Shown in pieces: positions 4,011-53,663 of a stretch of DNA of 64,000 nucleotides (position 1 is the stretch's first letter; each line of letters opens with the position of its first letter). The stretch is from Actinomycetes bacterium (GTDB lineage: Bacteria; Actinomycetota; Actinomycetes; JBOGEN01). The stretch covers positions 1,987-65,986 of the forward strand of contig JBOGEN010000069.1 of assembly GCA_050743265.1 (NCBI GenBank), in the 5' to 3' direction. A program made the position numbers and the translations under genes. The notes beneath the pieces are model-generated. The model saw nothing but the letters and a program-made list of their open reading frames with translations, ran no database searches and was not told where the DNA came from.

Positions 4011-4503
4011 ATGCGCGTCACTCTCGGTAACGACCATGCAGGGCTCGGCCTCAAAAGGCCATGTCCGCCACGTCCTCGACTCGATGGGTGTCGACATGGT
4101 CGACGTGGGGACGCACGACACCGCGCCAGTCGACTTCCCCGACGTCACCCGCCAGGTCTGCGACCCCGTCCGGCGGAGCGAGGCAGACCGCGGCGTCCTG
4201 CTCTGCGGCACGGGGGTGGGCGCGGCCATCGCGGCCAACAAGATCCCGGGCATCCGGGCAGCACTGTGCCATGACACGTTCTGCGCCCACCAGGGCGTCG
4301 AGCACGACGACGTCAACGTCGTGTGTCTAGGCGCGTGGATCGTCGGACCGATCATCGCCGAGGACGTCGTCCGCGCCTTCCTCACGGCGTCGTTCAGCAC
4401 GGACGAGGACTTCCGCAGACGCGTGACGAAGCTCCACCACATGGAACGGCTGGCCGCGGCCGAACTCGGAGCCACCACGGCCGAACCCGGAGGCACCTCA
4501 TGA
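4011..4503 (+). pseudogene. rpiB: Ribose-5-phosphate isomerase B (RpiB/LacAB family) carrying a +1 frameshift in an A4 run
   Basis: The N-terminus 'MRVTLGNDHAGLGLK' is in frame 0 (GGAGGA RBS). The remainder, 'GHVRHVLDSMGVDMVDVGTHD...CGTGVGAAIAANKIPGIRAALCHD...', is in frame +1. The junction falls exactly at 'ctcAAAAggc' (4053-4056); removing one A restores a colinear RpiB. Confidence 0.7.
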
Positions 4504-5959
4504 CCACGTCACCCGGCCAGCCGCCGACGGTCCCGTCCGTCGGGACCCTCAGCTACCCCGACCCCCCGCCGCAGCTCACCCGGCGGTTGACGCTCGTCGG
4601 CGCGGTCAGCGTCCTCGGGCCGGGCGCCATCATCGCCTCGGCCAACATCGGCAGTGGCGAGATGATCTTCGCGTCCCGCGGGGGCTCCATCTTTGGCTAC
4701 GCGCTGATCTAGGCCTTCATCGTCGCCGCCATTACGAAGGCCGCGCTGGCGTACTCGATGAACCGCTACACCGTCGTGGCGGGCGAGCACCCGATGACGC
4801 GCTTGGCGACCCTCTTCCCTGGGCCCAAGGGATGGTTCCCCCTGGTGTTCGGCGCGACGTCCATCGCGGTAGTGCCGTCGTGGGTGAGCGGGCTCGGGCT
4901 CGGGATCGGCGACCTCATCGCCGAGGGCACCGTGGGCACCGGAACCGCGTGGGCGACCTTCCTGATCGTGCTCTCTGCCGTCCTCGCGTGGGTCGGCGGC
5001 TACGACCGCATGGAGAAGGCGCAGACCGTCATCGTCGGGTTCATGCTGCTCGCCGTCGCGGTGAGCGTCGTGGTGCTCCGACCCGACTGGCTCGGCGTCC
5101 TCGGCGGCCTCGTGCCGACGATCCCCGAGTACGCGGGCTGGCTCGAAGCCGACTACCCCGACATTGCCGCACGCTCCCGGTGGCTCGAGGTGGGGGCGTA
5201 CCTCGCGCGATCGGTGGCGGCACGTACGACTACATCGCCTACGCCGGCATGCTGCGCGAGAAGAAGTGGGGGCTGCTGGAGCACCGGGACATCGCCAGCC
5301 TGACCGAGCGGTTCGAGAACGCCGGCCGCGGAGGTGAGCGCCTGCCCCTCTCGACCGACTCGGCGGAGGTGGCGAAGGGCAGGGCATGGTCCCGGGTGCC
5401 GCTCGGCGACGCGGCCATCTCGTTCTCCGCGATCGTGCTTTTCGCGTCGATGTTCATGATCAACGGGGCGTCGCTGCTGTCCGAGGACCAGCTCGTCCCC
5501 GCGGAGGACCAGACCCTCACCCACCAGGCCGGCTTCCTCGAAGCGATCCACCCGACATTCGTGTACCTCTACTACGTCGCGGTGCTCTTCGCGTTCTTCG
5601 GTTCGCTGTACGCGTTCTGGGAGATGTACAGCTACACCGCGTACGAGAGCCTCGGCGCGGTCTCCGAGCGGGTACGCCTGGCCGGCCAGCGTGCGGTCCG
5701 CCCCTACATGTACGCGTACATGATGGTGGCTGCGCTCGTGCTCGTGTGGACCGTGGGCGAGCTGGTCGTCATCGTCACTCCGGCGTCCGTCCTCGGCGGC
5801 CTGCTCATGTGCGGCGTGTTCTGCCTCGCGATCGTCTGGACCGAGCACAAGGTGCTGCCGAAGGAGTACCGCCTGACGACCCCGGGCCGGTGGTGGGTGC
5901 TCGTGTCCGGGTTGATGCTCATGATCCTCGGCGTCGTGTCGACCTGGGAGCTGTTCTAG
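4500..5959 (+). pseudogene. mntH: NRAMP-family divalent-metal (Mn2+/Fe2+) transporter MntH, disrupted by an in-frame TAG and a -1 frameshift
   Basis: The start forms ATGA with the rpiB stop and has a GGAGG RBS. The protein 'LGPGAIIASANIGSGEMIFASRGGSIFGYALI*AFIVAAITKAALAYSMNRYTVVAGEHPM...' is in a single frame, with TAG at 4710-4712 where NRAMPs carry the conserved Trp (GY.LLW). The C-terminal half (from '...GGGTYDYIAYAGMLREKKW' onward) moves to the -1 frame near 5205-5210, inside a GCGCG repeat. Confidence 0.7.
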
Positions 5960-6349: not shown

Positions 6350-6403
6350 GCACGCAGGACTCGGACCGCGCGCGGCGGCGGGCGCGCACGGGCCGTCGGA
6401 GGG

Positions 6404-7111: not shown

Positions 7112-7329
7112 GACGGCGCCCTCCCCGTGACCCCCGTGCCGGGGCTGTCTCCCCACAGTCGGCGCAAGACCAGGGCCCGTCAACCAGGTGATCTCCGGCT
7201 GGAACCCGGCGTCCAGGCGTCCGAAAACGGTCCGAAACGGCGCCCTCCGGGCGATCGCCACCGGGGAGGGCCGGGCCGCGGCACACTCGGCGGGAGCATC
7301 CCGGCCGTCTGCCGAGCACAGGAGCGCCC

Positions 7330-8235: not shown

Positions 8236-8250
8236 CCACGTGACACGTCG

Positions 8251-9519: not shown

Positions 9520-9526
9520 CCCGACA

Positions 9527-9883: not shown

Positions 9884-10086
9884 CTCGTCTCCTCCTCGGG
9901 TCGGGGCGGCGGCCCTTCTGCCGCCTCATCATGACGACGAACGGGCTCAGCCGTCCTCGACAACGCCATCTGTCCCTGGGCTCAGCCTCGGGTTCAGGCC
10001 CCGCCTGCGTTCGCCCCGTGCGTCCGGCAAACCGGGCCGAACCGCTCCCCTGTACGGGCAGCGTCGTTCTGAGATCCTTCGGACGC

Positions 10087-11100
10087 ATGCGAGCCTTCGT
10101 CATCACCGCCCCCGGCCGGGCCGAGGTACGCGACGTCGCCCCACCCGATGCCCGACCGGGCGAGGTGGTCGTCGACGTGGAGCGGGCGGGGGTCTGCGGG
10201 ACCGACGTCGAGCTCTTCACCGGCGTCCTGTCCTACCTGCACACCGGACAGGCCGCGTACCCGCTGCGGATCGGTCACGAGTGGGTCGGGGTGGTCTCCG
10301 CCGTCGGAGACGAGGTCGACCCGTCGTGGGTCGGGCGACGGGTCACCGGGGACACCATGCTCGGCTGCGGGCGCTGCGCCCGGTGCGAGACCGGGCGGCA
10401 GCACCTGTGCGCCCGCCGCTACGAGATCGGCGTCCGCAACGGCTGGCCGGGTGCGCTGGCCGAGCAGCTACCGGTTCCGGCTCGCGCGCTGCACCCGCTG
10501 CCGGACGCGGTCGGGCCCGATCTCGGCGCCCTCGTGGAGCCCGGCGGCAACGCCCTGCGCGCCGTCCGCGGCGCCGCCCTCGCGCCCGGGGAGCGGCTGC
10601 TCGTGCTGGGGCCGGGCACGATCGGGCTGCTGGTCGCGCAGATCGCGGCCACGCAGGATGTCGAGGTGCACCTCATGGGGCGCACTGGCGACTCCCCCGC
10701 CTTCGCCCGGTCCCTGGGGTTCGAACGCGTCTGGACGCAGGAGACGCTTCCCGACCTCCCGTTCGACGCCGTCGTCGACGCGTCCAACGCGGCAACCCTG
10801 CCGGCCCTCGCGGTAGACGTCGTCGAGCCGGGCGGGCGCGTCGTCTTCATCGGGCTCGCGGGGGAGCCCAGCCTCGTCGACACCCGCGCGATCGCGCTGG
10901 CGGACGTCACCGCCGTCGGCGTGCTCAGCGCCTCCGGAGGCCTCGACGGGATCATCGAGCAGTACGCGTCGGGCACCGTCGACCCGCGACCACTCGTCGC
11001 CGCGACCGTCAGCCTGGACGACGTCGCCGACGTCCTCGCCGGCACGCGCCGGCCCGCGTGGGGTGACGCCCCCAAGATCCACGTGGACCCCAGGCGCTGA
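10087..11100 (+). CDS. Zinc-dependent alcohol dehydrogenase (MDR family)
   Basis: 'GVCGTDVELF', 'GHEWVGVV' and 'CGRCARCETGRQHLC' mark the catalytic and structural Zn sites; the start is set at the internal ATG ('MRAFVITAPG'). Confidence 0.85.
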   Translation: MRAFVITAPGRAEVRDVAPPDARPGEVVVDVERAGVCGTDVELFTGVLSYLHTGQAAYPLRIGHEWVGVVSAVGDEVDPSWVGRRVTGDTMLGCGRCARCETGRQHLCARRYEIGVRNGWPGALAEQLPVPARALHPLPDAVGPDLGALVEPGGNALRAVRGAALAPGERLLVLGPGTIGLLVAQIAATQDVEVHLMGRTGDSPAFARSLGFERVWTQETLPDLPFDAVVDASNAATLPALAVDVVEPGGRVVFIGLAGEPSLVDTRAIALADVTAVGVLSASGGLDGIIEQYASGTVDPRPLVAATVSLDDVADVLAGTRRPAWGDAPKIHVDPRR

Positions 11101-11116
11101 CCCGCGGAACCGCGGG
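11101..11116. terminator. Bidirectional hairpin terminator (cccgcgg-aa-ccgcggg)
   Basis: A perfect 7-bp GC stem lies between the convergent ADH and CGNR genes. Confidence 0.4.
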
Positions 11117-11148
11117 TCGACTCACGACCTCGGCACGCCGCCGCCCCG

Positions 11149-11718
11149 TCACGCGTGGGCGGCCTTGCGTCGGCGGTACTCGCGGGTCTTGACCCGGTTG
11201 CCGCACGAGTCGGGCGCGCAGTAGCGCCCCCGTCCCGGCTTGGACTTGTCGTAGAAGACCCAGTGGCAGTCGTCCGCGGCGCAGACCCGCAGGCGCCACC
11301 ACTCGCCGGTGAGAGACATCCGGAGCGCGGCCGCGCAGATCGCGCCGATCGCGTGGTCCACGCCCGTCCCCGGAACGGTCAGGCGAGGCCCCCCGGGGGC
11401 GGCGAGGTCCACCCGTAGCGGGACGCCGTCCAGCGGCCGGCTCGCCGAAGCCTGGCCGGGCCGCCCCCGGTCAAGCGCCGACCGCAGGGCCGCCCGTAGC
11501 GCGGCTACACGGGCGTGATCCGCCTCGTCCAGCCGTACACCCTCGGGCAGGAGCCCCCGCGACGAGAGCCAGCGCCGCAGCGCCTCCGGCGAGGCGATCT
11601 CGTCCGCGGTCCCGTCCCGCGCCGGGTGGTTGCGCGGGATGAAGGTGCGCAGGTCACGGGTGTTCGCGAAGTCCTCCACGAGCACCGCGTCCGGCGAGGC
11701 TTCGACCGGCATCCGCAC
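11149..11718 (-). CDS. ABATE/CGNR zinc-finger domain protein
   Basis: The C-terminus 'CAADDCHWVFYDKSKPGRGRYCAPDSCGNRVKTREYRRRK' is the CGNR motif. Confidence 0.8.
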   Translation of the reverse strand: MRMPVEASPDAVLVEDFANTRDLRTFIPRNHPARDGTADEIASPEALRRWLSSRGLLPEGVRLDEADHARVAALRAALRSALDRGRPGQASASRPLDGVPLRVDLAAPGGPRLTVPGTGVDHAIGAICAAALRMSLTGEWWRLRVCAADDCHWVFYDKSKPGRGRYCAPDSCGNRVKTREYRRRKAAHA

Positions 11719-11753
11719 CTCCTGGGGTCACGACTCTTCCAAAGAAGATAACA

Positions 11754-11787
11754 GGTGTTGACTCTGAACACCTACTAACGCTATAAC
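11754..11787 (+). promoter_or_regulatory. Strong sigma-70-like promoter (TTGACT, 18-nt spacer, TATAAC) overlapped by a 7-bp inverted repeat AGGTGTT-N6-AACACCT
   Basis: This lies in an AT-rich intergenic island between the divergent CGNR gene and the small ORF; the palindrome overlaps the -35. Confidence 0.5.
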
Positions 11788-11830
11788 TAGTGTTCGACAG
11801 CAGAGGCCGAGCACTGAGAAGGAGAGCGCG

Positions 11831-12067
11831 ATGCTTCCCATCGCCGCGGAGATCGCCACCCGGATGACGCGCGAGCACGCGGGATCCGCCCTGCCGGGCG
11901 CGCCCACCCTGGACGACACCCCCGAGGCCCTGACGGGTCGCGAGGTGCGCCGGCCGCGCCGGACGCTGGCGTCGGTCCTGCGCGGGGTCGCTGCCACGTC
12001 GAGCCGGGTCGCGGCGACGTCCGGCCGCCTCGCTGACCGTATGGAGCGTCCCGCCGCCGCTGAGTGA
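11831..12067 (+). CDS. Small hypothetical protein (78 aa)
   Basis: AGGAGA RBS 5-6 nt upstream of the ATG, directly downstream of the promoter above; the protein is not recognisable. Confidence 0.4.
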   Translation: MLPIAAEIATRMTREHAGSALPGAPTLDDTPEALTGREVRRPRRTLASVLRGVAATSSRVAATSGRLADRMERPAAAE

Positions 12068-12176
12068 GGTCCCGTCGTCCGAGCCGCCGGTGACGTGGAA
12101 GATCGTCGCCGCCCGCGGTGTTGGGGAGCCCTGCAGGCGCGACCGCCCGGTCTCGCTTCTGGGCTGAGGGGGAGTC

Positions 12177-12992
12177 ATGGGCAGCGTCATCGTCGACGGT
12201 GTCGACCTCGCGTACGACGAGACGGGCGCGGGCGAACCGCTGGTTCTCGTGCACGGACACCCGTTCGACAGGTCGATGTGGGCACCGCAGGTCGCGCACA
12301 GGACGCGGCTCGGCTGGCGGGTCGTGACGCCGGACCTGCGCGGCTACGGCGCGAGCACCCCGCCATCGGGCACCACCACGTGGGACGCGTACGCCCGGGA
12401 CGTCGCTGCGCTGCTCGACCACCTCGGGATCGACCGGGCAGTCCTCGCGGGCCTGTCGATGGGCGGACAGATCGCGATGGAGTTCCACCGGCTCTTCCCC
12501 GAGCGGCTGCGCGGGCTCGTGCTCGCCGACACGTCACCGGTAGCCGAGACCCAGGCGGGACGGCGGCAGCGGCACGAGGTCGCTGACCGGCTGCTCCGTG
12601 AGGGCATGGACGCGGTGTCCGACGAGCTGCTGCCGATGATGGTGTCCGCGCGCACCCTCGACGAGCAGCCCGACGTCGCGGACCACGTGCTGCGCATGAT
12701 GAAGGCCACTGCCCCTGATGGGGCTGCCGCGGCGCTGCGTGCCCGTGCCGCGCGTCCGGACTACGTCGCGATGCTGGCCCACGTCAGCGTGCCGACGCTG
12801 GTGGTCGTGGGCCGGGAGGACGCGTACACGCCGGTGGACACCGCACGGGCGATGGCCGCGCGCATCCCCGGCGCGACGCTATCGGTCGTCGAAGGTGCGG
12901 GACACCTACCGACCCTGGAGCAGCCGGACGCGTTCAACGCGGCCCTGCAAGCCCTGCTCGCGGCCGTCCAGGTCGAGTCCGCGTCGCACTGA
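12177..12992 (+). CDS. Alpha/beta hydrolase fold protein
   Basis: 'LVLVHGHPFDRSMW' and the nucleophile elbow 'GLSMGG' are present, with a C-terminal His ('GAGHLP'). Confidence 0.85.
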   Translation: MGSVIVDGVDLAYDETGAGEPLVLVHGHPFDRSMWAPQVAHRTRLGWRVVTPDLRGYGASTPPSGTTTWDAYARDVAALLDHLGIDRAVLAGLSMGGQIAMEFHRLFPERLRGLVLADTSPVAETQAGRRQRHEVADRLLREGMDAVSDELLPMMVSARTLDEQPDVADHVLRMMKATAPDGAAAALRARAARPDYVAMLAHVSVPTLVVVGREDAYTPVDTARAMAARIPGATLSVVEGAGHLPTLEQPDAFNAALQALLAAVQVESASH

Positions 12993-12996
12993 GCAA

Positions 12997-13016
12997 CGGC
13001 GACGTCCTCGTCGCCG
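12997..13016. terminator. Hairpin terminator (cggcgacg-tcct-cgtcgccg) between convergent genes
   Basis: Perfect 8-bp stem. Confidence 0.35.
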
Positions 13017-13052
13017 GCAGCGCCACAGACGCTGGTCGACGGGCGCGAGGTG

Positions 13053-13493
13053 TCAGCCGATCAGAGGGGTCCCGCCCAGGCTCCACGTCTTGCCGCCCTC
13101 GCCGTCGGCGTCGTAGTCGTACGCGACGTAGCCGTCCCCGCTCCAGTACCCCGTGCCCGACGCGGTCGTCGTGGCACCCGGGCAGTAGCCCATGCCGGTC
13201 GAGCTCGCGTTGATCTCGCTGGTGTAGTCGCAGGACACCGCGTCCTTGGTGACGTCGTACCGCTCGACCCGGACGTGCACGTCGAAGTTGTCGAACTTGC
13301 GGGCGCCCCCACCGTCCTCCCACTGGATCCGTGCGTACGCGTTGTGGCTGGACCCGCTTTTGAACACGCACAACTTGATGTACGCATCGGTATCGTACCC
13401 GGACGTCGAGAACTCCCTGTGCTGCCAACCGGTGCAGACGTCGGCAACCGGAGTAGCCGCCCAATCCCGCCCTCCCGGACCGCAGCCGGGCAA
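13053..13493 (-). CDS. Hypothetical protein, Tyr/Asp/Gly/Ser/Thr-rich with 4 Cys; start uncertain
   Basis: '...YIKLCVFKSGSSHNAYARIQWEDGGGARKFDNFDVHVRVERYDVTKDAVSCDYTSEINASSTGMGYCPG...YDYDADGEGGKTWSLGGTPLIG' has genome-typical high GC3. The full ORF (to 13649) would overlap the divergent LLM gene by ~100 nt, so an internal TTG at 13493 was chosen. Confidence 0.35.
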   Translation of the reverse strand: MPGCGPGGRDWAATPVADVCTGWQHREFSTSGYDTDAYIKLCVFKSGSSHNAYARIQWEDGGGARKFDNFDVHVRVERYDVTKDAVSCDYTSEINASSTGMGYCPGATTTASGTGYWSGDGYVAYDYDADGEGGKTWSLGGTPLIG

Positions 13494-13545
13494 CGTCGGA
13501 CAATGTCTGTGGTGGTGCTGCCGAACTCCTGCGTAGCCTGACGCC

Positions 13546-14415
13546 GTGCGAATCGGCGTGAACGTCCCGAACTTCGGGCCCGGCACGGACCCGGGTGCGT
13601 TGCTTCGCTGGGCACAGACGGTGGAGGGGCTGGGCTTCGACCTGCTCATGCTCTCCGACCATGTGGCGGTGACGCCCGACGTCGCCGAGCAGTACCCGGC
13701 TCCGTTCTACGAGCCCTTCACCACGCTCGCCTGGCTGGCCGGGGTCACCACCCGGGTACGCCTCGGGACCACGGTGCTCATCGTCCCGTACCGGCACCCG
13801 CTGCTCATCGCGCGCATGGCAGCGAACCTCGACCAGCTGAGCGGCGGACGCCTGGTGCTGGGCGTCGGCGTCGGCTGGGCACGACAGGAGTTCGACGCGC
13901 TCGGCGTCCCCTTCCACGAGCGGGGGCGGTTGACCGACGACCACCTGCGCGCGGTGCGTACCGCGTGGGACGACCGCGACGACTACCGCAGCGGGCAGAT
14001 CCCGATCTGGGTCGGCGGCAACAGTGACGCCGGCCTCCGCCGGGCGGTCCGGCTCGGCGACGCCTGGCACCCACTGCGGTTCACGCTCCCGTGGCTGCGG
14101 GAGGCGCTGGGCCGCCTCAAGGCCGCGGCGGACGAGCAGCAGCGGCCGGTCCCCGCGCTGGCCCCGCGCATCGTCCTGCGGCTGACCGCCTCGCCTGTCA
14201 CCGATCCCCAGCGGCTCGCCGGCGAAGGCACGATAGACCAGGTCGTCGACGACCTCGACCAGATGCGGCTCCTCGGCGCCGACACGGTCGTCCTCGACCC
14301 GTTCAACGGAGACCCCGACGAGACGTCCCACCCGGAGGCGGCGTGGCACGCGCTCGCCGCCGTGGCCGCTCGGCGGGACCCAGGCGCACCACCGACAGGC
14401 AGGGAGCAGGCGTGA
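13546..14415 (+). CDS. LLM-class F420-dependent oxidoreductase
   Basis: 'MRIGVNVPNFGPG' with 'LSDHV' and TIM-barrel luciferase-like motifs. Confidence 0.85.
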   Translation: MRIGVNVPNFGPGTDPGALLRWAQTVEGLGFDLLMLSDHVAVTPDVAEQYPAPFYEPFTTLAWLAGVTTRVRLGTTVLIVPYRHPLLIARMAANLDQLSGGRLVLGVGVGWARQEFDALGVPFHERGRLTDDHLRAVRTAWDDRDDYRSGQIPIWVGGNSDAGLRRAVRLGDAWHPLRFTLPWLREALGRLKAAADEQQRPVPALAPRIVLRLTASPVTDPQRLAGEGTIDQVVDDLDQMRLLGADTVVLDPFNGDPDETSHPEAAWHALAAVAARRDPGAPPTGREQA

Positions 14416-14834
14416 AGTCCGACGACGAGCACCTCCGCAGGGCGATCGAGCTGGCCGGCACAGCGCGGGCGGCGGGTAACCCCCCGTTCGGGTCGCTGCT
14501 CGTGGGCGGGGACGGGGTCGTCCTCGCCGAGGACCGCAACACGACCGTCACCGACGCCGACATCACGGCGCACCCCGAGCTGAAGCTGGCCCGGTGGGCA
14601 GCCCGCGAGCTCGACGCCGGCACCGCAGCCGCGACCACCATGTACACGAGCTGCCAGCCCTGCCCCATGTGTGCGGGGGCCATCGGGCGGTCCGGGCTCG
14701 GTCGGGTCGTGTACGCGCTGTCCCAGGAGCAGCTCGACGAGCTCAGGCCGAGTCCCCCTTTCGCCCCCGTACGACACGAAGGCCCGGCTCTTCTCGACGA
14801 GGCTCGGGTCCCGGTTGCCGGCTACTACCACTAG
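14412..14834 (+). CDS. Nucleoside/nucleotide deaminase (CDA/TadA-like zinc deaminase)
   Basis: The GTG start forms GTGA with the LLM stop and has an AGGGAG RBS; 'HPELKLARWAA' and 'CQPCPMCAGAI' are the zinc-binding motifs. Confidence 0.8.
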   Translation: MKSDDEHLRRAIELAGTARAAGNPPFGSLLVGGDGVVLAEDRNTTVTDADITAHPELKLARWAARELDAGTAAATTMYTSCQPCPMCAGAIGRSGLGRVVYALSQEQLDELRPSPPFAPVRHEGPALLDEARVPVAGYYH

Positions 14835-14851
14835 GCCCGCTGGCCACCTGA

Positions 14852-14871
14852 CGCCAGCGCGCCGGCTGGCG
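14852..14871 (+). terminator. Hairpin (cgccagc-gcgccg-gctggcg) followed by GTTTCGG
   Basis: Lies 18 nt after the deaminase stop. Confidence 0.35.
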
Positions 14872-14927
14872 CCCGCGTTTCGGATGGCCTGCTTCAGACC
14901 GACACCCGGCATGCCGACACGTGGGGC

Positions 14928-17069
14928 ATGGACCTGGTCTCTCGAGTCGCGACATCGACGGTCGGCCTGCTGGCCGCTGTCGTGCTCGCGTACCCGCTCC
15001 TCCCCCTGCCCGCCGGAGCGCAGACGTGGCTGTACAACGGGCTGGCCGTCTCGGCGCTCGCGCTGGGCTTCGCCGGGGTGGTCCGCCACCGACCGGTTCG
15101 GCGCTCCGGCTGGTTCCTGATCCTCACCGGCTTCACCGGGTGGGTGCTCGGCGACGTCGTGTACTCGCTGGAGCAGACCGTATGGCACCTGCAGACCTAC
15201 CCGGCACCCTCGGACGCCTTCTTCCTTGGGTCGTACGCGTTCCTCGGGGCCGGAGCCCTGCTGATGGTGCGCACCCGTCGGGCCGGCCGGGACATTACGG
15301 CATTCCTGGACGCGGCGATCATCGCGGTCGGCACGGGTGTAGTGGCGGCGGTGTTCGTGGTCGCACCTCTCGCGTCGGACTCCGGCCTGACGCTGGCAGG
15401 AAAGCTGGTCAGCTCCGCGTACCCCCTCGGTGACCTGCTGCTGCTCGGCATCCTCGTCCGCCTGTGGGCAACTCCGGGGGCTCGGACGTCCGCGTTCCGC
15501 CTGCTCACCGCCGCGCTCGCGTTCACGCTCGCCGCCGACGCGGTGTGGAACTTCACGATCGTCACCACGGGTCAGTTCACCGCCTGGACGTGGAACGAGG
15601 CGCTGTGGCTGGCCAGCTACGTGGCGGTCTGCGCCTCCGCGTGGGTCCCGTCCATGCGGACTCTGGCCGAGCCCGCCCCCGACCGCGAGGAGAATGCGCC
15701 GACGCGCCGCCGCCTCGCCGCCCTGGCCTGCGGGCTGACGCTGCCCGGTGTCGCCCTGCTGCTCGACGGTGCCGCTGACGGGGAGGTCTCCTGGCAGATC
15801 ACCGGCATCGGGTCGCTGCTGCTCTGCCTGCTCGTGCTGATCCGCATGGCCGGCCTGCTGCACATCGTGCAGGCCCAGGCGGTCCGCCTCGCCGGGCTCG
15901 CCCGCGCGGATGCGCTCACCGGCGCGCCGAACCGCCGGACGTGGGACCACGAGCTGTCCCGGGCCTGCCAGGTGGCGCACGACACCGACCAGCCGCTCAG
16001 CGTCGCCATGCTCGACCTCGACCACTTCAAGGCGTACAACGACGCCCACGGCCACCAGGCGGGTGACCTGCTGCTCCGCGAGGCCGTGGCGGTCTGGACC
16101 GACCAGCTCGGCCCCGCCGGCTTCCTCGCCCGCTACGGCGGGGAGGAGTTCGCGCTGCTCCTGCCCGGCCTCACCTCCGAGCAGGCCAGGACGCGCATGG
16201 ACGCCCTGCGCTCCCTGACCCCGCGGCAGCAGACGTTCTCCGCCGGCGTCGCCACGTGGGACCCGACAACCGAGCCGGGCACAGCGGTAGCGGAGGCCGA
16301 CCAGGCGCTGTACGAGGCCAAGCGCGCCGGCCGCAACCGCGTCGCGCTCGCCCGCCCGGGCCGCGCGGGGTCGGTCGTGCCCGTTCCCCGGATCGCCCTG
16401 CAGCCCATCGTCGACCTCGACACCGGCGAGGTCCTGGCCGTCGAGGCGCTCAGCCGCTTCGACCACGGCAGCCCCGTCGAGGTGTTCGCGCAGGCGTACC
16501 GCGAGGGCAGCGGCGCCGCACTCGAAGCCGCGGCCGTCCGCGCCGCACTGGCCCACCGCAGCGACCACCGCCTGCTCTGCATCAACGTCAGCCTGCCGGC
16601 GTTGATCACGCCGGAGGTCCAGGACGCCCTGCCCTACGATCTATCCAGGGTCGTGCTCGAGATCACCGAAGGCACCGCGATCGACGGCACGCAGGCGCTC
16701 TCCGACCTCCTCGCCGAGCTGCGTGGGCGCGGGGCTCATCTCGCGATCGACGACTGGGGCCAGGGTTTCTCCAACCTCGACCGCATCCTCAGCATCCAGC
16801 CCGAGACCATCAAGATCGACATGTCGATCACCCAGAACCTCCACACCGCGTACCACCGCGCTGCCATCCGGGCCATCGCCGCCTGGGCAGACGAGGTCGG
16901 CGCCACGATCTGCGCCGAGGGCATCGAGACCGTCGCCCAGCGGGACGCCCTCCGGGCCCTCGGCATCCGACTCGGCCAGGGCTACCTCCTCGGCCGGCCG
17001 GAGATCCCGGCGACGCCCGAGACCCGCACGCAGGGCCAGCTGGCCTCTCCCATGACGCGCAGGAGCTAG
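14928..17069 (+). CDS. Membrane sensor diguanylate cyclase/phosphodiesterase (GGDEF-EAL)
   Basis: About 8 N-terminal transmembrane helices; the GGDEF domain contains 'RYGGEEFALL' and the EAL domain contains 'EALSRF...DDWGQGFSNL'. Confidence 0.9.
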   Translation: MDLVSRVATSTVGLLAAVVLAYPLLPLPAGAQTWLYNGLAVSALALGFAGVVRHRPVRRSGWFLILTGFTGWVLGDVVYSLEQTVWHLQTYPAPSDAFFLGSYAFLGAGALLMVRTRRAGRDITAFLDAAIIAVGTGVVAAVFVVAPLASDSGLTLAGKLVSSAYPLGDLLLLGILVRLWATPGARTSAFRLLTAALAFTLAADAVWNFTIVTTGQFTAWTWNEALWLASYVAVCASAWVPSMRTLAEPAPDREENAPTRRRLAALACGLTLPGVALLLDGAADGEVSWQITGIGSLLLCLLVLIRMAGLLHIVQAQAVRLAGLARADALTGAPNRRTWDHELSRACQVAHDTDQPLSVAMLDLDHFKAYNDAHGHQAGDLLLREAVAVWTDQLGPAGFLARYGGEEFALLLPGLTSEQARTRMDALRSLTPRQQTFSAGVATWDPTTEPGTAVAEADQALYEAKRAGRNRVALARPGRAGSVVPVPRIALQPIVDLDTGEVLAVEALSRFDHGSPVEVFAQAYREGSGAALEAAAVRAALAHRSDHRLLCINVSLPALITPEVQDALPYDLSRVVLEITEGTAIDGTQALSDLLAELRGRGAHLAIDDWGQGFSNLDRILSIQPETIKIDMSITQNLHTAYHRAAIRAIAAWADEVGATICAEGIETVAQRDALRALGIRLGQGYLLGRPEIPATPETRTQGQLASPMTRRS

Positions 17070-36102: not shown

Positions 36103-37395
36103 CTAGCCGGCGTCGGTGCCCTGGTAGCCACGGCTGTACACGGGCTGCTCGAGGAACTCCTTCGGGTCGTACGTCCAGAACTGGCTGACCTTCGGGAAGG
36201 TCTTGGTCGGGACGTTCACGAGCCCGCCGTCCCGCTTCACGACCTTGCGCACGTACACGTTGGACACCGGGCTGTCGTACTCGTCGAGCCGCATCGGCCC
36301 CATCGCCGAGTCCTCGAGCGACACGCCGCGTACCGCCTCGAGGAAGGCCTTGCGGTTCGAAAGGTCACCGTCGACGTCCTCGATCGCCTGGGTCAGCCAC
36401 TGGGCTGCGGTGTACATGGCGCCGGAGTAGTACGAGGGCACCTTGCCGTACCTGTCCTGGTAGGACGCGGCGAAGTCCTGCGTCGCGGGGCTCTCACGCC
36501 CCTCGGCGAAGTGCCCCACCGAGACCAGTCCCTCGGCCTCGTCGCCCATCCCGCGGAGGAGCGACTGGTCCAGCGTCGTCTCCCCGCCGAGGAGCGGCAG
36601 CGAGCCCTTGAGCCCGAAGTCGCTCCAGGCCTTGACGAACTTGGGTCCCTCGGCGCCGACGGTCTCGACGAAGGCGGCGTCCGCGTTCGTGTCCTTGATC
36701 TGCGCCATGTACGTACTGAAGTCCTGCGTGCCGAGGGGGTGCCACAGCTGCTTGACGACCGTGCCCCCCGCGTCGGTGAACGTGTTGACGAAGCCTCCGC
36801 AGGTCTCGTGGCCGAACGCGTAGTCGGTGCACTGGGTGACGATGCGCCGGTACCCCTGGTCGTACGCCCATTGCCCGAAGGGGTGCGTGGTCTGGCTGCT
36901 CGTCCAGCCCGCCACCCGGATGACACCGGGAAGTCGCTCGCGCTGCGTGAGGTCGTCGGCCGAGACCACCGGAAGGAAGATCGGCACGTCCTGCCGGCTC
37001 ATCTCCTCGGCGACGGCGAGCCCGACGTTCGAGAGCAGCGGCCCGACGATGAAGTCGACGCCCTCGCTCTCGACGAGGCGCTGGGCCTTGTTGAGGCCGG
37101 TGGCCGGGTCACCCGCCGTGTCCTCGTCGACGATCTCGACCGTCTTGCCGGCGATCTTCATGCCGTGCTCTTTGAAGTAGAGGTTCCAGCCGTTGAGCAT
37201 GTCCTGGCCGCTGGCCGCCACGGCGCCCGTCTGCGGGGCGAGCACGCCGATCTTGATGGTGTCCGAGTCACCGGCACGCTGCGGGTGGGCCTCCTCCCCG
37301 CCGGGAGCCGAGCAGGCGGCTGCCAGCACGAGGCCGGTCCCCGCGGCGAGAGCCGCCCGCCACCCGTACCACGTTCCTCGTCCTCGCCTGGTCAT
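36103..37395 (-). CDS. ABC transporter substrate-binding lipoprotein (type-1 periplasmic binding protein, Liv/amide-binding family)
   Basis: Lipobox 'LAAAC' and 'IKIGVLAPQTGAVAASG'. Confidence 0.9.
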   Translation of the reverse strand: MTRRGRGTWYGWRAALAAGTGLVLAAACSAPGGEEAHPQRAGDSDTIKIGVLAPQTGAVAASGQDMLNGWNLYFKEHGMKIAGKTVEIVDEDTAGDPATGLNKAQRLVESEGVDFIVGPLLSNVGLAVAEEMSRQDVPIFLPVVSADDLTQRERLPGVIRVAGWTSSQTTHPFGQWAYDQGYRRIVTQCTDYAFGHETCGGFVNTFTDAGGTVVKQLWHPLGTQDFSTYMAQIKDTNADAAFVETVGAEGPKFVKAWSDFGLKGSLPLLGGETTLDQSLLRGMGDEAEGLVSVGHFAEGRESPATQDFAASYQDRYGKVPSYYSGAMYTAAQWLTQAIEDVDGDLSNRKAFLEAVRGVSLEDSAMGPMRLDEYDSPVSNVYVRKVVKRDGGLVNVPTKTFPKVSQFWTYDPKEFLEQPVYSRGYQGTDAG

Positions 37396-47858: not shown

Positions 47859-48638
47859 GTGCGGCTCGAGGGCAGGACAGCAGTGGTCACCGGGGCTGGG
47901 CGCGGGATCGGCCAGCAGGTGGCCCTCGTGCTGGGCCGGGCCGGCGCCCACGTGGTGCTCGCCTCCCGCTCCCCCGACGCCCTCGTCCAGACGCGTGCCC
48001 GGATCGAGGCCGACGGCGGCACGGCGCTCGTCGTGCCGACCGACATCACCCGGCAGAGCGACGTCGCCACGCTGGCCGAGCGCGTCGAGGAGACGTACGG
48101 CGCCGCGGACGTGCTCGTGTGCAACAGCGGGGTGGGTGGGCCTTCCGCACCGCTGTGGGAGGTCGACCCCGCCGAGTGGGAGTCCACCCTGGCGGTCAAC
48201 GTCACGGGCACGTTCCTGTGCTGCCGGGCGATCCTCCCGGCCATGCTGGGCCGCCGGTCCGGGAGCGTCGTGGTGATCGGGTCGATGACCGGCAAGCGCC
48301 CGCTCATGAACCGCTCGCCGTACGCGACGAGCAAGACCGCGCTGATCGGGCTCGTCCGCACGCTCGCCCACGAGACCGGCCCGTACGGCGTACGGGTGAA
48401 CCTCGTCTCCCCCGGCCCGGTGGAGGGCGAGCGCATCGAGTGGGTGATCGGCCGGCAGGCCGAGGCGCAGGGCATCAGCCCGGAGGAGGCTCGGGAGCAG
48501 TTCACGTCCTCGTCCCCGCTGCGTCGGCTGGTGGCGGCCTCCGACGTGGCGGACGCGGTCCTCTACCTCGCGTCCGACCAGGCGGGCTCCGTGACCGGGG
48601 AGGACCTCAACGTGTCGGCCGGCACCGTCATGCACTGA
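47859..48638 (+). CDS. SDR family oxidoreductase
   Basis: 'TAVVTGAGRGIG' and 'YATSKTAL'. Confidence 0.9.
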   Translation: MRLEGRTAVVTGAGRGIGQQVALVLGRAGAHVVLASRSPDALVQTRARIEADGGTALVVPTDITRQSDVATLAERVEETYGAADVLVCNSGVGGPSAPLWEVDPAEWESTLAVNVTGTFLCCRAILPAMLGRRSGSVVVIGSMTGKRPLMNRSPYATSKTALIGLVRTLAHETGPYGVRVNLVSPGPVEGERIEWVIGRQAEAQGISPEEAREQFTSSSPLRRLVAASDVADAVLYLASDQAGSVTGEDLNVSAGTVMH

Positions 48639-48653
48639 CCAGGAGGCGACGAA

Positions 48654-49346
48654 TTGAGCAGGCTCATCGACCTGTCGCAGGACATCTACCAGGGGATGCA
48701 GGTTTACCCCGGGCACCTCAAGACGGTCGTCTTCGACCACGCGAGCCACGACGAGACGGCGCCACGGTTCGAGAGCGAGTTCTCGTTCCAGACCAAGGGG
48801 ATCATGCTCAACGACAACGGCCCCACGCACGTCGACTCGTTCAGCCATCTGGACCCGAGCCCGGACGCCCAGACGATCGACCAGATGTCGCTCGACCTGT
48901 TCTATGGCCCGGCGGTGTGCCTCGACGTCTCCGAGCACCCGCCGCGGACGGACATCACCGGTGAGCACCTGGACGCGGCGGTCGCCAAGTCCGGGCAGGA
49001 CGTACGCCCCGGCGACATCGTGCTGTTCTACACCGCGACGTACGACCGCCACCACGGCACGGCCGCGTACCTCACCGACTTCGCCGGGCTCGGGGAGTCC
49101 GGCAGCCAGTGGATCGTCGACAAGGGCATCAAGACCTTCGGCGTCGACAGCCCCACACCCGACAACCCGATCAGCAAGACCTACCCCTGCCACATGATGT
49201 GCCGCGTCCACCACAAGACCCACTACGAGAACCTGGCCCACCTCGACCAGGTGGTGAACACGCGCTTCACGTTCGTCGGGCTACCGCTCAAGACCGTCGG
49301 GGCGCACGGCGGCCCCACGCGCGCCGCCGCCCTCGTGGACGCCTGA
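48654..49346 (+). CDS. Cyclase family protein (kynurenine formamidase-like)
   Basis: AGGAGG RBS then TTG; 'NGPTHVDSFSH' and 'DIVLFYTATYD'. Confidence 0.85.
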   Translation: MSRLIDLSQDIYQGMQVYPGHLKTVVFDHASHDETAPRFESEFSFQTKGIMLNDNGPTHVDSFSHLDPSPDAQTIDQMSLDLFYGPAVCLDVSEHPPRTDITGEHLDAAVAKSGQDVRPGDIVLFYTATYDRHHGTAAYLTDFAGLGESGSQWIVDKGIKTFGVDSPTPDNPISKTYPCHMMCRVHHKTHYENLAHLDQVVNTRFTFVGLPLKTVGAHGGPTRAAALVDA

Positions 49347-49350
49347 CCGG

Positions 49351-49788
49351 CTACTCCGCGGGCGCTGCCGTGCGGGCGGGACGCTCGGCCACCTCGTCGA
49401 GCTCGGGCAGGTTCACGACGATCGGGTCCGGGTCGGACCGGACGACCACCCAGGACGTGGGCTCGGACGCGGACGCGTTGATCTCCTGATGGATGATCTC
49501 GGCGGGGATGAACACGAAGTCGCCCACGTCCGCCTCGGTGACCTGCTCGAGACGGGGGCCCCACCGGAACCGGGCGCGGCCCTCGAGCACGTACAGGATC
49601 GTCTCCTGGTCCCCGTGATGGTGGGCCCCGGTCGCCGCGCCCGGCTCCACCACGGACAGGAAGCCGCTGAGCACCCGGGCGTCCGGGTTACGGGAGTCGA
49701 AGGCGACCTCACGTCGCAGGCCGGGGGTCTGGGGGGTGTCGCCCGAGCGCTCGCCGGCGGACACGACCCGTACGCGGGGGTCACTCAT
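49351..49788 (-). CDS. Cupin domain protein
   Basis: 'GAATGAHHHGDQETILYVLEGRARF'. Confidence 0.8.
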   Translation of the reverse strand: MSDPRVRVVSAGERSGDTPQTPGLRREVAFDSRNPDARVLSGFLSVVEPGAATGAHHHGDQETILYVLEGRARFRWGPRLEQVTEADVGDFVFIPAEIIHQEINASASEPTSWVVVRSDPDPIVVNLPELDEVAERPARTAAPAE

Positions 49789-50275
49789 GCCGATCGTCCT
49801 TCCCGTGCCCGTGTAGCCGCCGGAGCACGTCCACTGCCTCGCCGAGGTCGGGCACCTGCTCCGCGTTGTCCGTCACCCACCGGTAGCGGACGACCCCGTC
49901 CTCGTCGACGAGGAACACGGAGCGCTTGGCCAGACCCTGGTGGCCCTTCCACACGTCGTACTGCACGCCGTACGCCTGGCACACCTCGCGGTTCCAGTCC
50001 GAGAGCAGCGGGAAGTCGACTCCGAGCTCCTTGGCGAACCGCTGCTGGGAGAAGATCGCGGTCACCGCGATCGCGACGACCTCACCCCCGAGTGAGCGGA
50101 TCTCCGCCGCCGACTGCCCCAACTGGGACAGCTCGGTGCTTCAATACCCGCCGAAGTCGAAGACGTAGAAGCAGACGAACACAGGTCCCCGGGCACGCAG
50201 CTCGGCCAGGTCGACCGACTCGTCGAAGGTCCGTCGCAGCGTGAAGTCAGGGGCGCGGTCGCCGACCTCCGGCAT
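49781..50275 (-). CDS. AhpE-like 1-Cys peroxiredoxin whose peroxidatic-cysteine codon is an in-frame TGA (selenocysteine candidate, or nonsense-mutated pseudogene)
   Basis: Two ORFs in the same frame are separated only by TGA (50141-50143) plus 6 codons. The protein 'MPEVGDRAPDFTLR...GPVFVCFYVFDFGGY-[TGA]-STELSQLGQSAAEIRSLGGEVVAIAV...DFPLLSDWNREVCQAYGV...RSVFLVDEDGVVRY' aligns to M. tuberculosis AhpE, with the TGA at the Cys45 position (motif xxC-S/T-TEL). The ATG forms TGATG with the EcfT stop. A 7-bp hairpin with an AGUU loop begins about 9 nt 3' of the UGA. Confidence 0.6.
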
Positions 50276-51093
50276 CAGCTCATGTTCCACTGCATCGTCG
50301 CCGGGTTGAACTGCCAGACGAGGTAGACCACGGAGAGCGCGAAGAACACCCACCCGAAGACCTTGCCCGCGGTGCTGTCCGGCACGGGGCGCATGTACGT
50401 ACGGGTCTTGTGGGCCCCGTACCCCCGGATGTCGAGTGCCATGGCCTGGGTCTGGCCGTTGCGCAGGCCGAGCACGAGCATGGCGAACGCGAGGTGCTTC
50501 ATGCGGTGCCACTTGCGCTGGACCGGGTTCATGTCCTGCCCCAGGTCGCGGATGCGCTGGGTCACCGAGATGTCCTTGCCGAGCTGCAGGAACGTCGGGA
50601 ACAGCACGAGCCCCAGCACCGGCGCGTGCACGAGCCGGTAGTCGAAGCCGCGGCCCGCGAAGTTCTGCACCATGTCGGTGGGGTGCGTCGTGAACGCGAA
50701 GGAGAGGCCCGACAACGCGATCGCGAGGAACCGGAGCGCGAGCAGCACGCCGAATCCGATCGCGGCCCAGGTGAGGTCCCCGAGCGGGGTCTGGACGGCG
50801 ACCTCGTTCGATCCTGCGGTCGCCTGTCCGCCGTAGAAGAACGGGAACACCACCATGAGGATGAGGACGAACGGCAGGATCGTCTTGCCGAACGTCCAGT
50901 AGACCCGCAGGGACACGCCGGTGAGGAACGCCGCACAGAAGAACGTGAAGGCGAACAGGCCAAGCCCGACCCACAGGTTGGTGTTGAAGATCGCGACGAA
51001 GGACGCGCCCAGGATGTAGAGCGTCTTGGAGAACGGCGACATCCGGTGGAACGGGGAGGCGGCGTCCTTATAGGCCAGATCGAGATCCTGCAC
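50275..51093 (-). CDS. ecfT: ECF transporter transmembrane (T) component (EcfT/CbiQ family)
   Basis: 'ASPFHRMSPFSKTLYILG' matches the EcfT N-terminal consensus; 5-6 transmembrane helices; start approximate. Confidence 0.8.
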   Translation of the reverse strand: MQDLDLAYKDAASPFHRMSPFSKTLYILGASFVAIFNTNLWVGLGLFAFTFFCAAFLTGVSLRVYWTFGKTILPFVLILMVVFPFFYGGQATAGSNEVAVQTPLGDLTWAAIGFGVLLALRFLAIALSGLSFAFTTHPTDMVQNFAGRGFDYRLVHAPVLGLVLFPTFLQLGKDISVTQRIRDLGQDMNPVQRKWHRMKHLAFAMLVLGLRNGQTQAMALDIRGYGAHKTRTYMRPVPDSTAGKVFGWVFFALSVVYLVWQFNPATMQWNMS

Positions 51094-52846
51094 GGATGCC
51101 CTCCTTGATCCGGTCGCGCACCTCGGCGGTGTCACGCAGAGGCTCTCCCAGCAGCTGGCGGGAGAACTCGAACACGGGGGGCGGACGCAGCTTGGCCCGC
51201 CGCAGGACGTCCGTCTCGTCGAACAGCTCCTGCGGGCCGCCGTCGAAGATCGTCCGGCCCTCGGTCATGACCACGCACCGGTCGGCGTGCTCGGCGACGA
51301 GCCGCATGTCGTGCGTGATGAACGCGACCGCCGCGCCGGCGTCCGCGAGGTTGCGCAGCAGCTCCATGAGGCGCTGCGCCTGTTGGTAGTCCTGGCCGAA
51401 CGTCGGCTCGTCCAGGACGACCACCTCGGGCTCGCCGATGACCATGCAGGCGACCGACAGGCGGCGCTTCTGCCCCTGGCTGAGCACGTACGGGCTGGCG
51501 TCGCGCCGGTCCCACAGCCGGACGCTGCGCAGGAACGCCTCCACCCGGCGCTCGCCCTCGTCCGCCGGCAGCGTGAACGCCTTGAGCCCGTGGGCGACCT
51601 CGTCGTACACCGTGTTGCGGATGAACTGCTTCTCCGGCACCTGGAAGATGAACGCCACGCGCTTGACGAGCTCGGCGAAGCGGTACTTCGTCGTGGGGAT
51701 CCCGTCGACGAGCACCTCGCCGGACGTCGGCTTGTGGATGCCGTTGAAGCACTTGGCAAGCGTGGACTTGCCCGAGCCGTTCTGGCCGACGATGGCGAGC
51801 ATCTCTCCCCGGCGTACCTCCATGCTGACCTCACGCAGCACGTCGGCACGGGACGGGTAGGAGAAGTTCAGGTCCCGCACCGCGATCACGGCTTCACGCT
51901 GGGGCGGCTCGGCGGGTGCCGTGAGGGGGGCGTCCAGCGGCTCTTGCTCGAGCGCTGCCGGCTCGGGCAGGCCGAGTGCCGAGACCGCGTCGACGAGCTC
52001 GGCCCCGTTGATCGGGGTCTGCGGGAGCTCGAGCCCGTCGCGGCGGAGCTCGAGCGCCACCTCGGCGGCCTGGGGGATCCACAGGCCCATCTGGTCCCGG
52101 ACGTCCAGCCCGTGCTTGGTCATGAAGTCGCGCGGCGACTCCGGCCCGTGCACGGTCTGCCCGTCCACCAGGAGGATCTTGTTCACCTGGTCGTAGACGG
52201 TGTCGACCTCGTGCTCCACGATCAGCACGGTCACGCCGGTGAGCTCGCGCACGCGGTTGACCGCGTCGAGCACCTCCTGCGTCCCGACCGGGTCGAGGTT
52301 CGACGTGGGCTCGTCGAGGATCAGGACCCTCGGCTGCAGCGCGAGCATGGCCGCCAGGGCCACCCGCTGCTTCTCCCCGCCGGACAGCTTGACGGTCGAC
52401 CGGTCACGGAACCCGGCGAGGCCGACGAGGTCGAGGGCGGAGTCGATGCGCCGGTGGATCTCGTCCGGGGAGAACAGGTAGTTCTCGAGGGCGAACCCGA
52501 TCTCTTCCTCGATCGTCAGCGTGACGATCTGCTCCTCGGGGTTCTGGAACAGCATGTTGACCGTGGCGAAGCGCTCGCCCCGGTCGAGCTCCCGGCGGTT
52601 GACGAGCCCCTTGGTGGCGTGGTTGACGAGGACGCGGCCCTCGTTGCGCCCGCCGAAGTAGTCCGGGTAGATGCCCACGAGGTTCAGCGCCAGCGTCGAC
52701 TTGCCCGAGCCGCTCTTGCCGAGGACGAGCATGAAGTCCCCTGGCTCGACCTCGAACGAGAGGTCGCTCAGGGCGAGTGACTCGCCGCCTCCGGTGCCCT
52801 TGAACCAGAAGCTGTAGTCCTCGACGACGATCATCGGGTCGGCCAT
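51068..52846 (-). CDS. ECF transporter fused tandem ATPase (EcfA1-EcfA2 fusion, YkoD-like)
   Basis: Two complete ABC ATPase domains, 'GKSGSGKSTL...LSGGEKQRVALA' and 'GQNGSGKSTL...LSQGQKRRLSVA'. ATG at 52846 with a GAGGAG RBS; the first ~89 residues of the ORF are spurious. Confidence 0.9.
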   Translation of the reverse strand: MADPMIVVEDYSFWFKGTGGGESLALSDLSFEVEPGDFMLVLGKSGSGKSTLALNLVGIYPDYFGGRNEGRVLVNHATKGLVNRRELDRGERFATVNMLFQNPEEQIVTLTIEEEIGFALENYLFSPDEIHRRIDSALDLVGLAGFRDRSTVKLSGGEKQRVALAAMLALQPRVLILDEPTSNLDPVGTQEVLDAVNRVRELTGVTVLIVEHEVDTVYDQVNKILLVDGQTVHGPESPRDFMTKHGLDVRDQMGLWIPQAAEVALELRRDGLELPQTPINGAELVDAVSALGLPEPAALEQEPLDAPLTAPAEPPQREAVIAVRDLNFSYPSRADVLREVSMEVRRGEMLAIVGQNGSGKSTLAKCFNGIHKPTSGEVLVDGIPTTKYRFAELVKRVAFIFQVPEKQFIRNTVYDEVAHGLKAFTLPADEGERRVEAFLRSVRLWDRRDASPYVLSQGQKRRLSVACMVIGEPEVVVLDEPTFGQDYQQAQRLMELLRNLADAGAAVAFITHDMRLVAEHADRCVVMTEGRTIFDGGPQELFDETDVLRRAKLRPPPVFEFSRQLLGEPLRDTAEVRDRIKEGIRAGSRSGL

Positions 52847-52958: not shown

Positions 52959-53663
52959 TTACGCGTGGACGACCGCGCCACCTCTCGCCGGCGGCGTGTC
53001 CACCGACGGCACACCGGCGCGCTCCAGGCCGATCCCCAGGTACCGACCGACGATGCCCCAGATGACGCCGCCGATCGCACCCACGAGGATCGAGAGCAGA
53101 CCCCAGGACGCACCCCCCGCCAGGCCGAACCCGACGACGACGAACAGCGCGACCTGGTTGGTGCCTGCCGCCACCGCGCCGGTCACGCCGAACAGCAGGT
53201 TGCGGCCGCGCCAGCGCATGGCGAGGAAGGCCAGCGCCGTGAGGATGCCCGGGAAGAGCGCGTACCAGAGCAGCAGCGGCCCGTCCGGGTCACCCATGAA
53301 CCAGCGCACGACGTGGGTGACGACGATCGCCAGGAGCAGCACGCTCGCGCGCTTGCGCAGGTACGCCCCCGCGAAGAAGAGGATCCAGGTCGTGCCGTTG
53401 TAGACGGCGTAGATGACGAAGCCGACGGCACCCGTCGCCCAGACCGTGCGCTCGAGGAAGCCCAGCGCGCCCAGGATCTCGATCGCGGCCTCGATGATGC
53501 CCAGCAGCACCGCGACCACGATGTCCATCGTGTTCATCCGGAAGTCGTCCCGCCAGCGAAAGCCGGGGGAGGCCTGCTTGGCCTGACGTGTCTCTGCCAC
53601 TGCCCGCTCCTCTGCTCGGCGATCCGGCAAGGGCTGCGGCCCGGCCAGACCGGTCTTCGTCAC
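52959..53663 (-). CDS. ECF transporter substrate-specific (S) component; substrate unknown (YkoE-like position)
   Basis: 5-6 transmembrane helices, 'FVIYAVYNGTTWILFFAGAYLRKR...'. ATGA overlap with the upstream enoyl-CoA hydratase stop suggests a start at 53663 (internal 'MNTMD' is an alternative). Confidence 0.65.
   Translation of the reverse strand: MTKTGLAGPQPLPDRRAEERAVAETRQAKQASPGFRWRDDFRMNTMDIVVAVLLGIIEAAIEILGALGFLERTVWATGAVGFVIYAVYNGTTWILFFAGAYLRKRASVLLLAIVVTHVVRWFMGDPDGPLLLWYALFPGILTALAFLAMRWRGRNLLFGVTGAVAAGTNQVALFVVVGFGLAGGASWGLLSILVGAIGGVIWGIVGRYLGIGLERAGVPSVDTPPARGGAVVHA

Follow-up and report, generated by a model that had tools for sequence, protein, structure and literature searches.

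Genomic context of a peroxiredoxin-like gene with an internal stop codon

On the reverse strand of the window—the whole 64,000-nucleotide stretch of DNA analysed here, from an Actinomycetes metagenome-assembled genome (MAG)—lies an operon whose fourth gene, which we call prxU-like, is interrupted by one in-frame stop codon; it follows genes for an ECF-transporter S component, a fused ECF ATPase, and EcfT, and precedes a cupin gene (Table 1). The frame running from 50275 down to 49781 reads MPEVGDRAPDFTL...FYVFDFGGY*STELSQLGQSAAEIR...DDRHE* (with a fuller N-terminal reading, MPEVGDRAPDFTLRRTFDESVDLAELRARGPVFVCFYVFDFGGY*STELSQLGQSAAEIR...GKDDRHE*), and its internal stop is a single TGA, reproduced base for base in an independent assembly (run SRR27067691). 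The A of the start codon (ATG, 50275-50273) doubles as the last base of the ecfT stop codon (TGA, 50277-50275), giving TGATG, and at the other end the cupin gene, from its ATG at 49788, overlaps the last 8 nt of the prxU-like gene, terminal TGA included; coupling thus exists at both ends. An open reading frame listed as 277 aa (50141..50974) is a shadow frame through ecfT, and the genuine N-terminal part of the prxU-like protein corresponds to its last 44 codons. An earlier note on this DNA had joined two open reading frames into one gene, translationally coupled to ecfT and embedded in an operon, and had expected annotation pipelines to miscall it. All of this holds: the gene is one frame of 164 codons, the TGATG overlap places it in the operon, and in the NCBI annotation, on a contig of 70,206 bp, the gene appears as MGH8867481.1, a "redoxin domain-containing protein" of 116 aa. 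Entries for the gene family across NCBI, JGI, and ENA are likewise short, at 86-133 aa.

Table 1. Features of the window discussed in the text, in window coordinates.
Feature	Coordinates	Strand	Remarks
Nramp-like transporter gene	4323..5959	+	In-frame TAG at 4710-4712, frameshift near 5250; continues as ORF 4832..5959
Peripla_BP_6 gene	36103..37395	-	
ARAGORN tRNA-Arg(gcg) call	37196..37282	+	87 nt; antisense within the Peripla_BP_6 gene
SDR and PF04199 cyclase genes	47859..49346	+	Counterpart of the SDR-cyclase pair beside prxU in other clades
Cupin_2 gene	49351..49788	-	Last gene of the operon; ATG overlaps the prxU-like stop
prxU-like gene	49781..50275	-	164 codons, proposed Sec codon 45; AhpC-TSA/Redoxin domain; terminal stop 49781-49783
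SECIS-like hairpin	50110..50136	-	CUGUCCC 50131-50125, loop AGUU 50124-50121, GGGGCAG 50120-50114; lower stem CCGA/UCGG, 50136-50133 with 50113-50110 (4 bp); loop starts 16 nt after the UGA
In-frame UGA, proposed Sec codon	50141..50143	-	Peroxidatic-Cys column; stop kept family-wide
ecfT (CbiQ family)	50275..51135	-	Stop overlaps the prxU-like start
Fused ECF ATPase	51068..52846	-	Two ABC_tran domains; likely start ATG 52846 (MADPMIVV...), preceded by GAGGAG
Membrane protein in the ECF S-component position	52959..53663	-	No Pfam match; 82-88% identical in L002-L004

Parts of this arrangement recur among related loci (numbered with the prefix L). Propionibacteriales and Streptomycetales MAGs likewise place an S component, the fused ATPase, ecfT, and prxU in this sequence, the ecfT-prxU order is kept in L003 and L004, and in a Streptosporangiales MAG the ECF genes lie 2.4 kb from prxU. 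The protein in the S-component position (L002, 11848-12432; L003, 6696-7319; L004, 4387-5010) is near prxU in every case, across three actinobacterial orders. Other clades carry an SDR gene and a PF04199 "putative cyclase" gene immediately upstream of prxU, with SDR, cyclase, and prxU on one strand in L032, L033, L035, and L073; in the window, both genes converge on the operon. The copies beside prxU in distant clades share 58-65% identity with those of the window. A 3-hydroxyisobutyrate-dehydrogenase-like gene recurs in 11 loci, and these recurring neighbors—SDR, cyclase, and dehydrogenase—suggest a shared oxidative or catabolic pathway. The Geodermatophilus neighborhood differs from the ECF operon of the window: there, the gene has FAA-hydrolase and 3-hydroxyisobutyrate-dehydrogenase-like genes as neighbors, with a luciferase-like monooxygenase, RibBA, and the FAA-hydrolase on the upstream side of four loci (L001, L096, L097, and L098, ~6300-15500) and a three-subunit molybdenum hydroxylase of the xanthine-dehydrogenase type on the downstream side.

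Scanning the window for other split reading frames returned only ordinary gene junctions and the TAG of an Nramp-like transporter gene, which also bears a frameshift. No SECIS-like hairpin follows this TAG, and the gene is either a pseudogene or a MAG assembly error; gene decay or assembly errors thus do occur in this MAG. Separately, ARAGORN calls a tRNA-Arg(gcg) that is probably spurious; Rfam detects no tRNAs in the window.

A BCP-like protein with an altered active site

With Cys placed at the stop codon for the Pfam comparison, the protein matched PF00578 (AhpC-TSA; 1.1e-28, residues 4-131 against profile positions 1-123 of 124) and PF08534 (Redoxin; 1.6e-22), and sequence comparison makes the predicted fold unambiguous. 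The best structural match, Aeropyrum pernix Bcp (2cx3), extends end to end with E = 2e-28. In this alignment the TGA falls on the peroxidatic-Cys column (FFPAAFSPVCTKEL of 2cx3 versus FYVFDFGGY[U]STEL), and the stop codon likewise sits opposite Cys in the L007 gene and in all 18 full-length representatives, so the placement first proposed for the TGA stands up against solved peroxiredoxins. The catalytic Arg (R118) is also retained: AKRSVF aligns with AKRAVF of 2cx3, and the residue is invariant in the family alignment (77/77, column 116).

The surroundings of the catalytic position are, by contrast, unlike those of Cys enzymes. A search for Cys homologues with the C-terminal fragment (P0001) as query recovered nearest Cys-containing proteins at ≤50% identity, and no Cys-containing form was found above about 50%. 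Among the 18 full-length Cys representatives, Thr or Ser stands at position -3 in every case, Pro at -7 in 16, and Cys at +5 in 13, whereas the Sec family has Val at -7 (76/77), Gly at -3 (76/77), and Ser at +5 (73/77). The window protein therefore departs from the PxxxT/SxxC motif, reading VFDFGGYU, i.e., VxxxGxxU, with neither Pro nor Thr. A further downstream Cys (VCQAYG) is present in only 39 of the 77 sequences. Scores against curated selenoprotein models fall far below their cut-offs, at 62.4 bits versus 270 for PrxU (NF040737) and 35.6 versus 298 for Prx-SUH (NF045827).

The protein can be compared with two known groups. BCP/PrxQ proteins (A. pernix 2cx3; Sulfolobus 3hjp, 2ywn) give the best full-length matches (E = 2e-28 to 7e-23) and share its size and conserved Arg, but have Cys with Pro and Thr/Ser in the motif, and the Cys homologues recovered here usually add a resolving Cys at +5; the Sec family has Val, Gly, and Ser at these three positions. 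AhpE (Mycobacterium tuberculosis Rv2238c) is a 1-Cys actinobacterial protein of about 155 aa that likewise has no resolving Cys, but it has Cys and the canonical motif and is a much weaker match (E = 1e-15); reduction by an external thiol is probably common to both. The earlier assignment as an "AhpE-type 1-Cys" enzyme is thus right as to the apparent lack of a resolving Cys and wrong as to affinity, which is closer to BCP-PrxQ (2e-28 versus 1e-15). Judged from its sequence, the protein appears to be BCP-like by descent and 1-Sec in mechanism, resembling AhpE only in the latter respect. The activating Pro and Thr are missing, and peroxidase chemistry is therefore not assured.

Several cluster representatives that are more remote (P0127, P0130, P0144, and P0149; ~105-125 aa, 37-46% identity) begin with MS.FRD or MCAFRD. 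Set against the BCP pattern C-T-x-E-M-C-x-F-R-D, these starts fall just past the catalytic column. An in-frame stop in this position may truncate other BCP-like families too.

Conservation of the stop codon among relatives

We collected family loci from the DNA of named genomes and from 80 metagenome contigs, the latter picked by peptide patterns that excluded the stop codon position; a scan of genome contigs with a single protein yielded 12 loci. The total came to 91 family loci (two duplicate fetches included) with 67 distinct downstream sequences. All 91 have an in-frame stop at the catalytic codon, and none has a sense codon there. A first count gave 66 TGA, 18 TAG, and no TAA; three loci missed by the first peptide pattern have TGA as well. 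Members span Propionibacteriales, Streptomycetales, Streptosporangiales, Geodermatophilus, and a Verrucomicrobiales MAG (56% identity), and more than 900 family clusters at 90% identity were detected, with the family abundant in soil Actinomycetota.

The consequence for protein databases is visible in a search of 5.8 billion proteins, where 119 of the best 120 matches—among them proteins from Geodermatophilus spp. and from Streptomycetales and Streptosporangiales MAGs—are 90-133 aa long and comprise only the part downstream of the stop. The one full-length protein among these 120 (P0002, L095 268-738, JGI Ga0634764_1680865) has Trp at the Sec site. We rejected it as a genuine Trp form, as the contig DNA has a stop there and does not translate to P0002; the gene caller apparently applied a code with TGA = Trp to this contig. 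A general reassignment of TGA to Trp was rejected too, given that the Trp of P0002 is a translation artefact and that genes throughout the window end in TGA.

Selection acts on both sides of the stop codon. The 44 upstream codons show ~77% protein identity to the nearest relatives, similar to the downstream part. For those sequence pairs that allowed an estimate, dN/dS is below 1 upstream and downstream alike, so that purifying selection acts on each half of the gene.

These data bear directly on whether the gene is a pseudogene, that is, an ordinary Cys-peroxiredoxin struck by a nonsense mutation from which only fragments or nothing would be made. Such a reading could draw on the 116-aa fragment that is all NCBI annotates and on the other gene of the contig broken by an in-frame TAG and a frameshift. 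It is opposed by the presence of the stop in 91/91 relatives, which range over several orders of actinobacteria plus one Verrucomicrobiales MAG, extend to identities as low as 56%, and include none with a Cys codon, by 44 upstream codons that remain in frame under purifying selection, and by translational coupling that is intact on either side. Given the family-wide conservation of the stop, we regard the pseudogene reading as effectively refuted and scarcely credible. Examination of relatives, one of the checks suggested at the outset, turned up neither TGC nor TGT at this codon, and the initial notion of a single TGC-to-TGA change fails on the same count: across the whole family the stop is the ancestral state, an ancient codon as opposed to a private or recent point mutation.

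A SECIS-like hairpin downstream of the stop codon

Downstream of the UGA, after a 9-nt spacer, the transcript is predicted to form a hairpin with a 7-bp stem and an AGUU loop (Table 1), as the earlier note had described at about this distance. Its folding energy is -10.7 kcal/mol alone, and the 44-nt stretch containing it reaches -20.9 kcal/mol (z = -3.0 versus shuffles). Published criteria for bacterial SECIS elements (PMC13188914) comprise a 3-9-nt loop in which G occupies the first or the second position and as a rule precedes G or U, a stem of ≥4 bp, a UGA-to-loop distance of 16-37 nt, and a minimum free energy of ≤ -7.5 kcal/mol; the hairpin of the window lies within all of these, with the AGUU loop, the 7-bp stem, 16 nt, and -10.7 kcal/mol. 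At gathering thresholds, Rfam had no match anywhere in the window, a result that says little on SECIS elements.

The hairpin is a property of the family, occurring at the same position in 71 of 71 distinct sequences folded, with the general form 5'-[C/U]UG[U/C/G][C/U]CC-AGUU-GG[G/A][A/G]C[A/G]. When the four criteria were applied to the minimum-energy fold, 64 of 67 distinct relatives passed, always with a spacing of 16 nt, and the remaining three have the same hairpin, with a competing fold winning in the short segment. In all the collected DNA, such a hairpin after an in-frame stop was found only in the prxU-like family.

Two kinds of evidence indicate that the structure itself is maintained. 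First, its arms change together: L039, L040, and L045 carry CUGCUCC/GGAGCAG, with two compensatory pairs and a change of LSQLG to LLQLE, L054 and L094 carry CUCUCCC/GGGAGAG, and two clades have a displaced 3' arm, one by 2 nt (loop AGUUGC, Gly to Arg) and the other by 1 nt—changes that preserve the stem at the protein's expense. In the ungapped alignment, 84.9% of cells pair, versus 43-52% with a slid partner; double changes occur in 4 pairs, a level matched by 4/500 shuffles, and the covariation score is matched by 13/500. These statistics are only moderate because most stem positions are nearly invariant. Second, codon choice over the hairpin is narrow, with Ser encoded by TCC in 73/73 cases, Gln by CAG in 77/77, Leu by TTG in 74/76, and Gly only by GGA or GGG. 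The corresponding shares elsewhere in these genes are 6.6% (TTG among Leu codons), 27% (TCC among Ser codons), and 9% (GGA among Gly codons). Over precisely the hairpin, then, synonymous variation is strongly suppressed. The checks proposed for the hairpin accordingly came out in its favor: it is conserved, it covaries, and it has the dimensions of a bSECIS.

Partition of UGA and UAG among lineages

In a neighbor-joining tree, all TAG forms fall in one clade, which contains Geodermatophilus sp. YIM 151500. TAG is found in 4/4 named Geodermatophilus genomes, and everything else, the window included, has TGA. According to Santesmasses et al. (PMC5330540, following Mukai et al. 2016), the tRNA-Sec of Geodermatophilaceae has a CUA anticodon, and their selenoprotein genes have UAG as the Sec codon. 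The codon of the gene therefore switches in the lineage with the switched tRNA-Sec anticodon, which is predicted by Sec recoding and not by a pseudogene or by generic read-through. Pyrrolysine at the TAG was considered and rejected, since most members have TGA and the site is the Cys/Sec catalytic position. The family thus provides a natural experiment with an internal control—the same gene and hairpin, with UGA in most lineages and UAG only where the tRNA-Sec anticodon changed.

The stop might instead be passed without selenium, either by programmed read-through, with the hairpin promoting near-cognate decoding (Trp at UGA, Gln or Tyr at UAG), or by re-initiation after termination, giving two chains that assemble. 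Downstream hairpins stimulate read-through in other systems, and this precedent lends the idea some weight, as do the presence of both UGA and UAG at the site and a Sec machinery that is presumed for this MAG. However, the site is the catalytic Cys column, where Trp or Gln would abolish redox chemistry; UAG is confined to a lineage with a known tRNA-Sec(CUA); and the hairpin fits a SelB-type bSECIS in loop content and spacing. Re-initiation, for its part, is opposed by the lack of a conserved start codon or ribosome-binding site for the C-terminal chain, whose called starts vary (TTG in the window). We therefore judge selenium-free expression to be highly unlikely compared with Sec recoding.

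Selenocysteine insertion and a candidate mechanism

Considering these lines of evidence together, the gene very probably encodes a 164-residue peroxiredoxin-like selenoprotein, with UGA read as Sec. This was the central claim of the earlier note, Sec recoding of the catalytic codon, and it gains its support from the family-wide stop and the conserved, covarying hairpin, having come through each of the note's refuting checks that was run. That Sec is inserted in this organism is deduced from the gene, and peroxidase activity and the reductant are deductions too. According to the proposed mechanism, SelB with Sec-tRNA(Sec) would be held at UGA45 by the hairpin beginning 10 nt downstream, whose AGUU loop would present a G-U dinucleotide 16 nt after UGA45, such that selenocysteine would be inserted instead of termination taking place. 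Sec45 would replace the peroxidatic Cys. The catalytic R118 is still present, but Val and Gly stand where the active site would have Pro and Thr, and Ser stands at +5 in place of the resolving Cys of BCP proteins. With that resolving Cys gone, the oxidised selenenic acid would probably depend on a separate thiol partner for its reduction (for example thioredoxin, mycoredoxin, or mycothiol), much as 1-Cys enzymes do.

Genes for the decoding machinery were sought in the available DNA. None of selA, selB, selD, and tRNA-Sec was located in the 64-kb window, and scans of 25 related loci likewise recovered no tRNA-Sec. The absence of sel genes from the 64 kb would agree with a relic—a family that truly encodes Sec, in a MAG that has lost the Sec machinery and yields only a 44-residue peptide—as would the frequent loss of the Sec trait among bacteria described in PMC1794560. 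Yet nothing in the gene, the hairpin, or the operon coupling is damaged, the hairpin still has its rare TTG and TCC codons where quick drift would be expected if SelB no longer bound it, and the same operon is kept in the nearest relatives (L003 and L004). A relic is thus highly unlikely as well, and Sec insertion is the reading we carry forward.

Relation to known selenoproteins and significance

Sec-peroxiredoxins are among the more widespread bacterial selenoprotein families, with 78 organisms reported (PMC5029168), and an actinobacterial case has been published: Blastococcus saxobsidens DD2 has an AhpC-like selenoprotein with UAG-encoded Sec and a bSECIS (Santesmasses et al. 2017, PMC5330540, S4 Fig). 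The latter resembles the window gene in its actinobacterial origin, its AhpC/TSA family, and a catalytic-site Sec with a bSECIS hairpin after it, but differs in its codon, UAG there versus UGA in the window gene, which comes from a different, unclassified Actinomycetes MAG. The TAG clade described here and the Blastococcus protein probably represent the same protein family, since Geodermatophilus and Blastococcus share a bacterial family. PrxU of Eubacterium acidaminophilum (NF040737; PMC13188914) also has Sec in place of the peroxidatic Cys, an AhpC/TSA fold, and a bSECIS within the coding region; however, it belongs to the 2-Cys type, is ~230 aa long, occurs in anaerobes, and has a PxxxTxxU motif, unlike the 164-aa VxxxGxxU protein of an aerobic-type soil actinobacterium. 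With Sec-peroxiredoxins known and a UAG-encoded actinobacterial AhpC already published, no new mechanism is therefore involved. The impression that such proteins are not routinely annotated in Actinomycetota was correct in that the gene has not been annotated as a selenoprotein, and overlooked the Sec-containing AhpC-like gene of Blastococcus (PMC5330540).

What goes beyond the routine is the altered active site across the family, the failure to find Cys orthologues, and the clean partition of UGA and UAG. Tentatively, and a little short of an even call, these proteins may form a distinct, uncurated Sec-dependent BCP-like subfamily, with VxxxGxxU-x4-S as its active site, linked to SDR, cyclase, and ECF-transporter genes, and following the switch of the Sec codon from UGA to UAG in Geodermatophilaceae. 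On that view, the protein would be a selenoenzyme with altered catalysis and not a simple Cys-to-Sec swap, and the replacement of Pro and Thr specifically in the Sec forms hints that selenium may relax or change active-site requirements. The gene is also a widespread soil-actinobacterial one that is systematically shortened in public annotation, and it is further evidence that selenoproteins other than formate dehydrogenase are in use among aerobic soil bacteria of high GC content.
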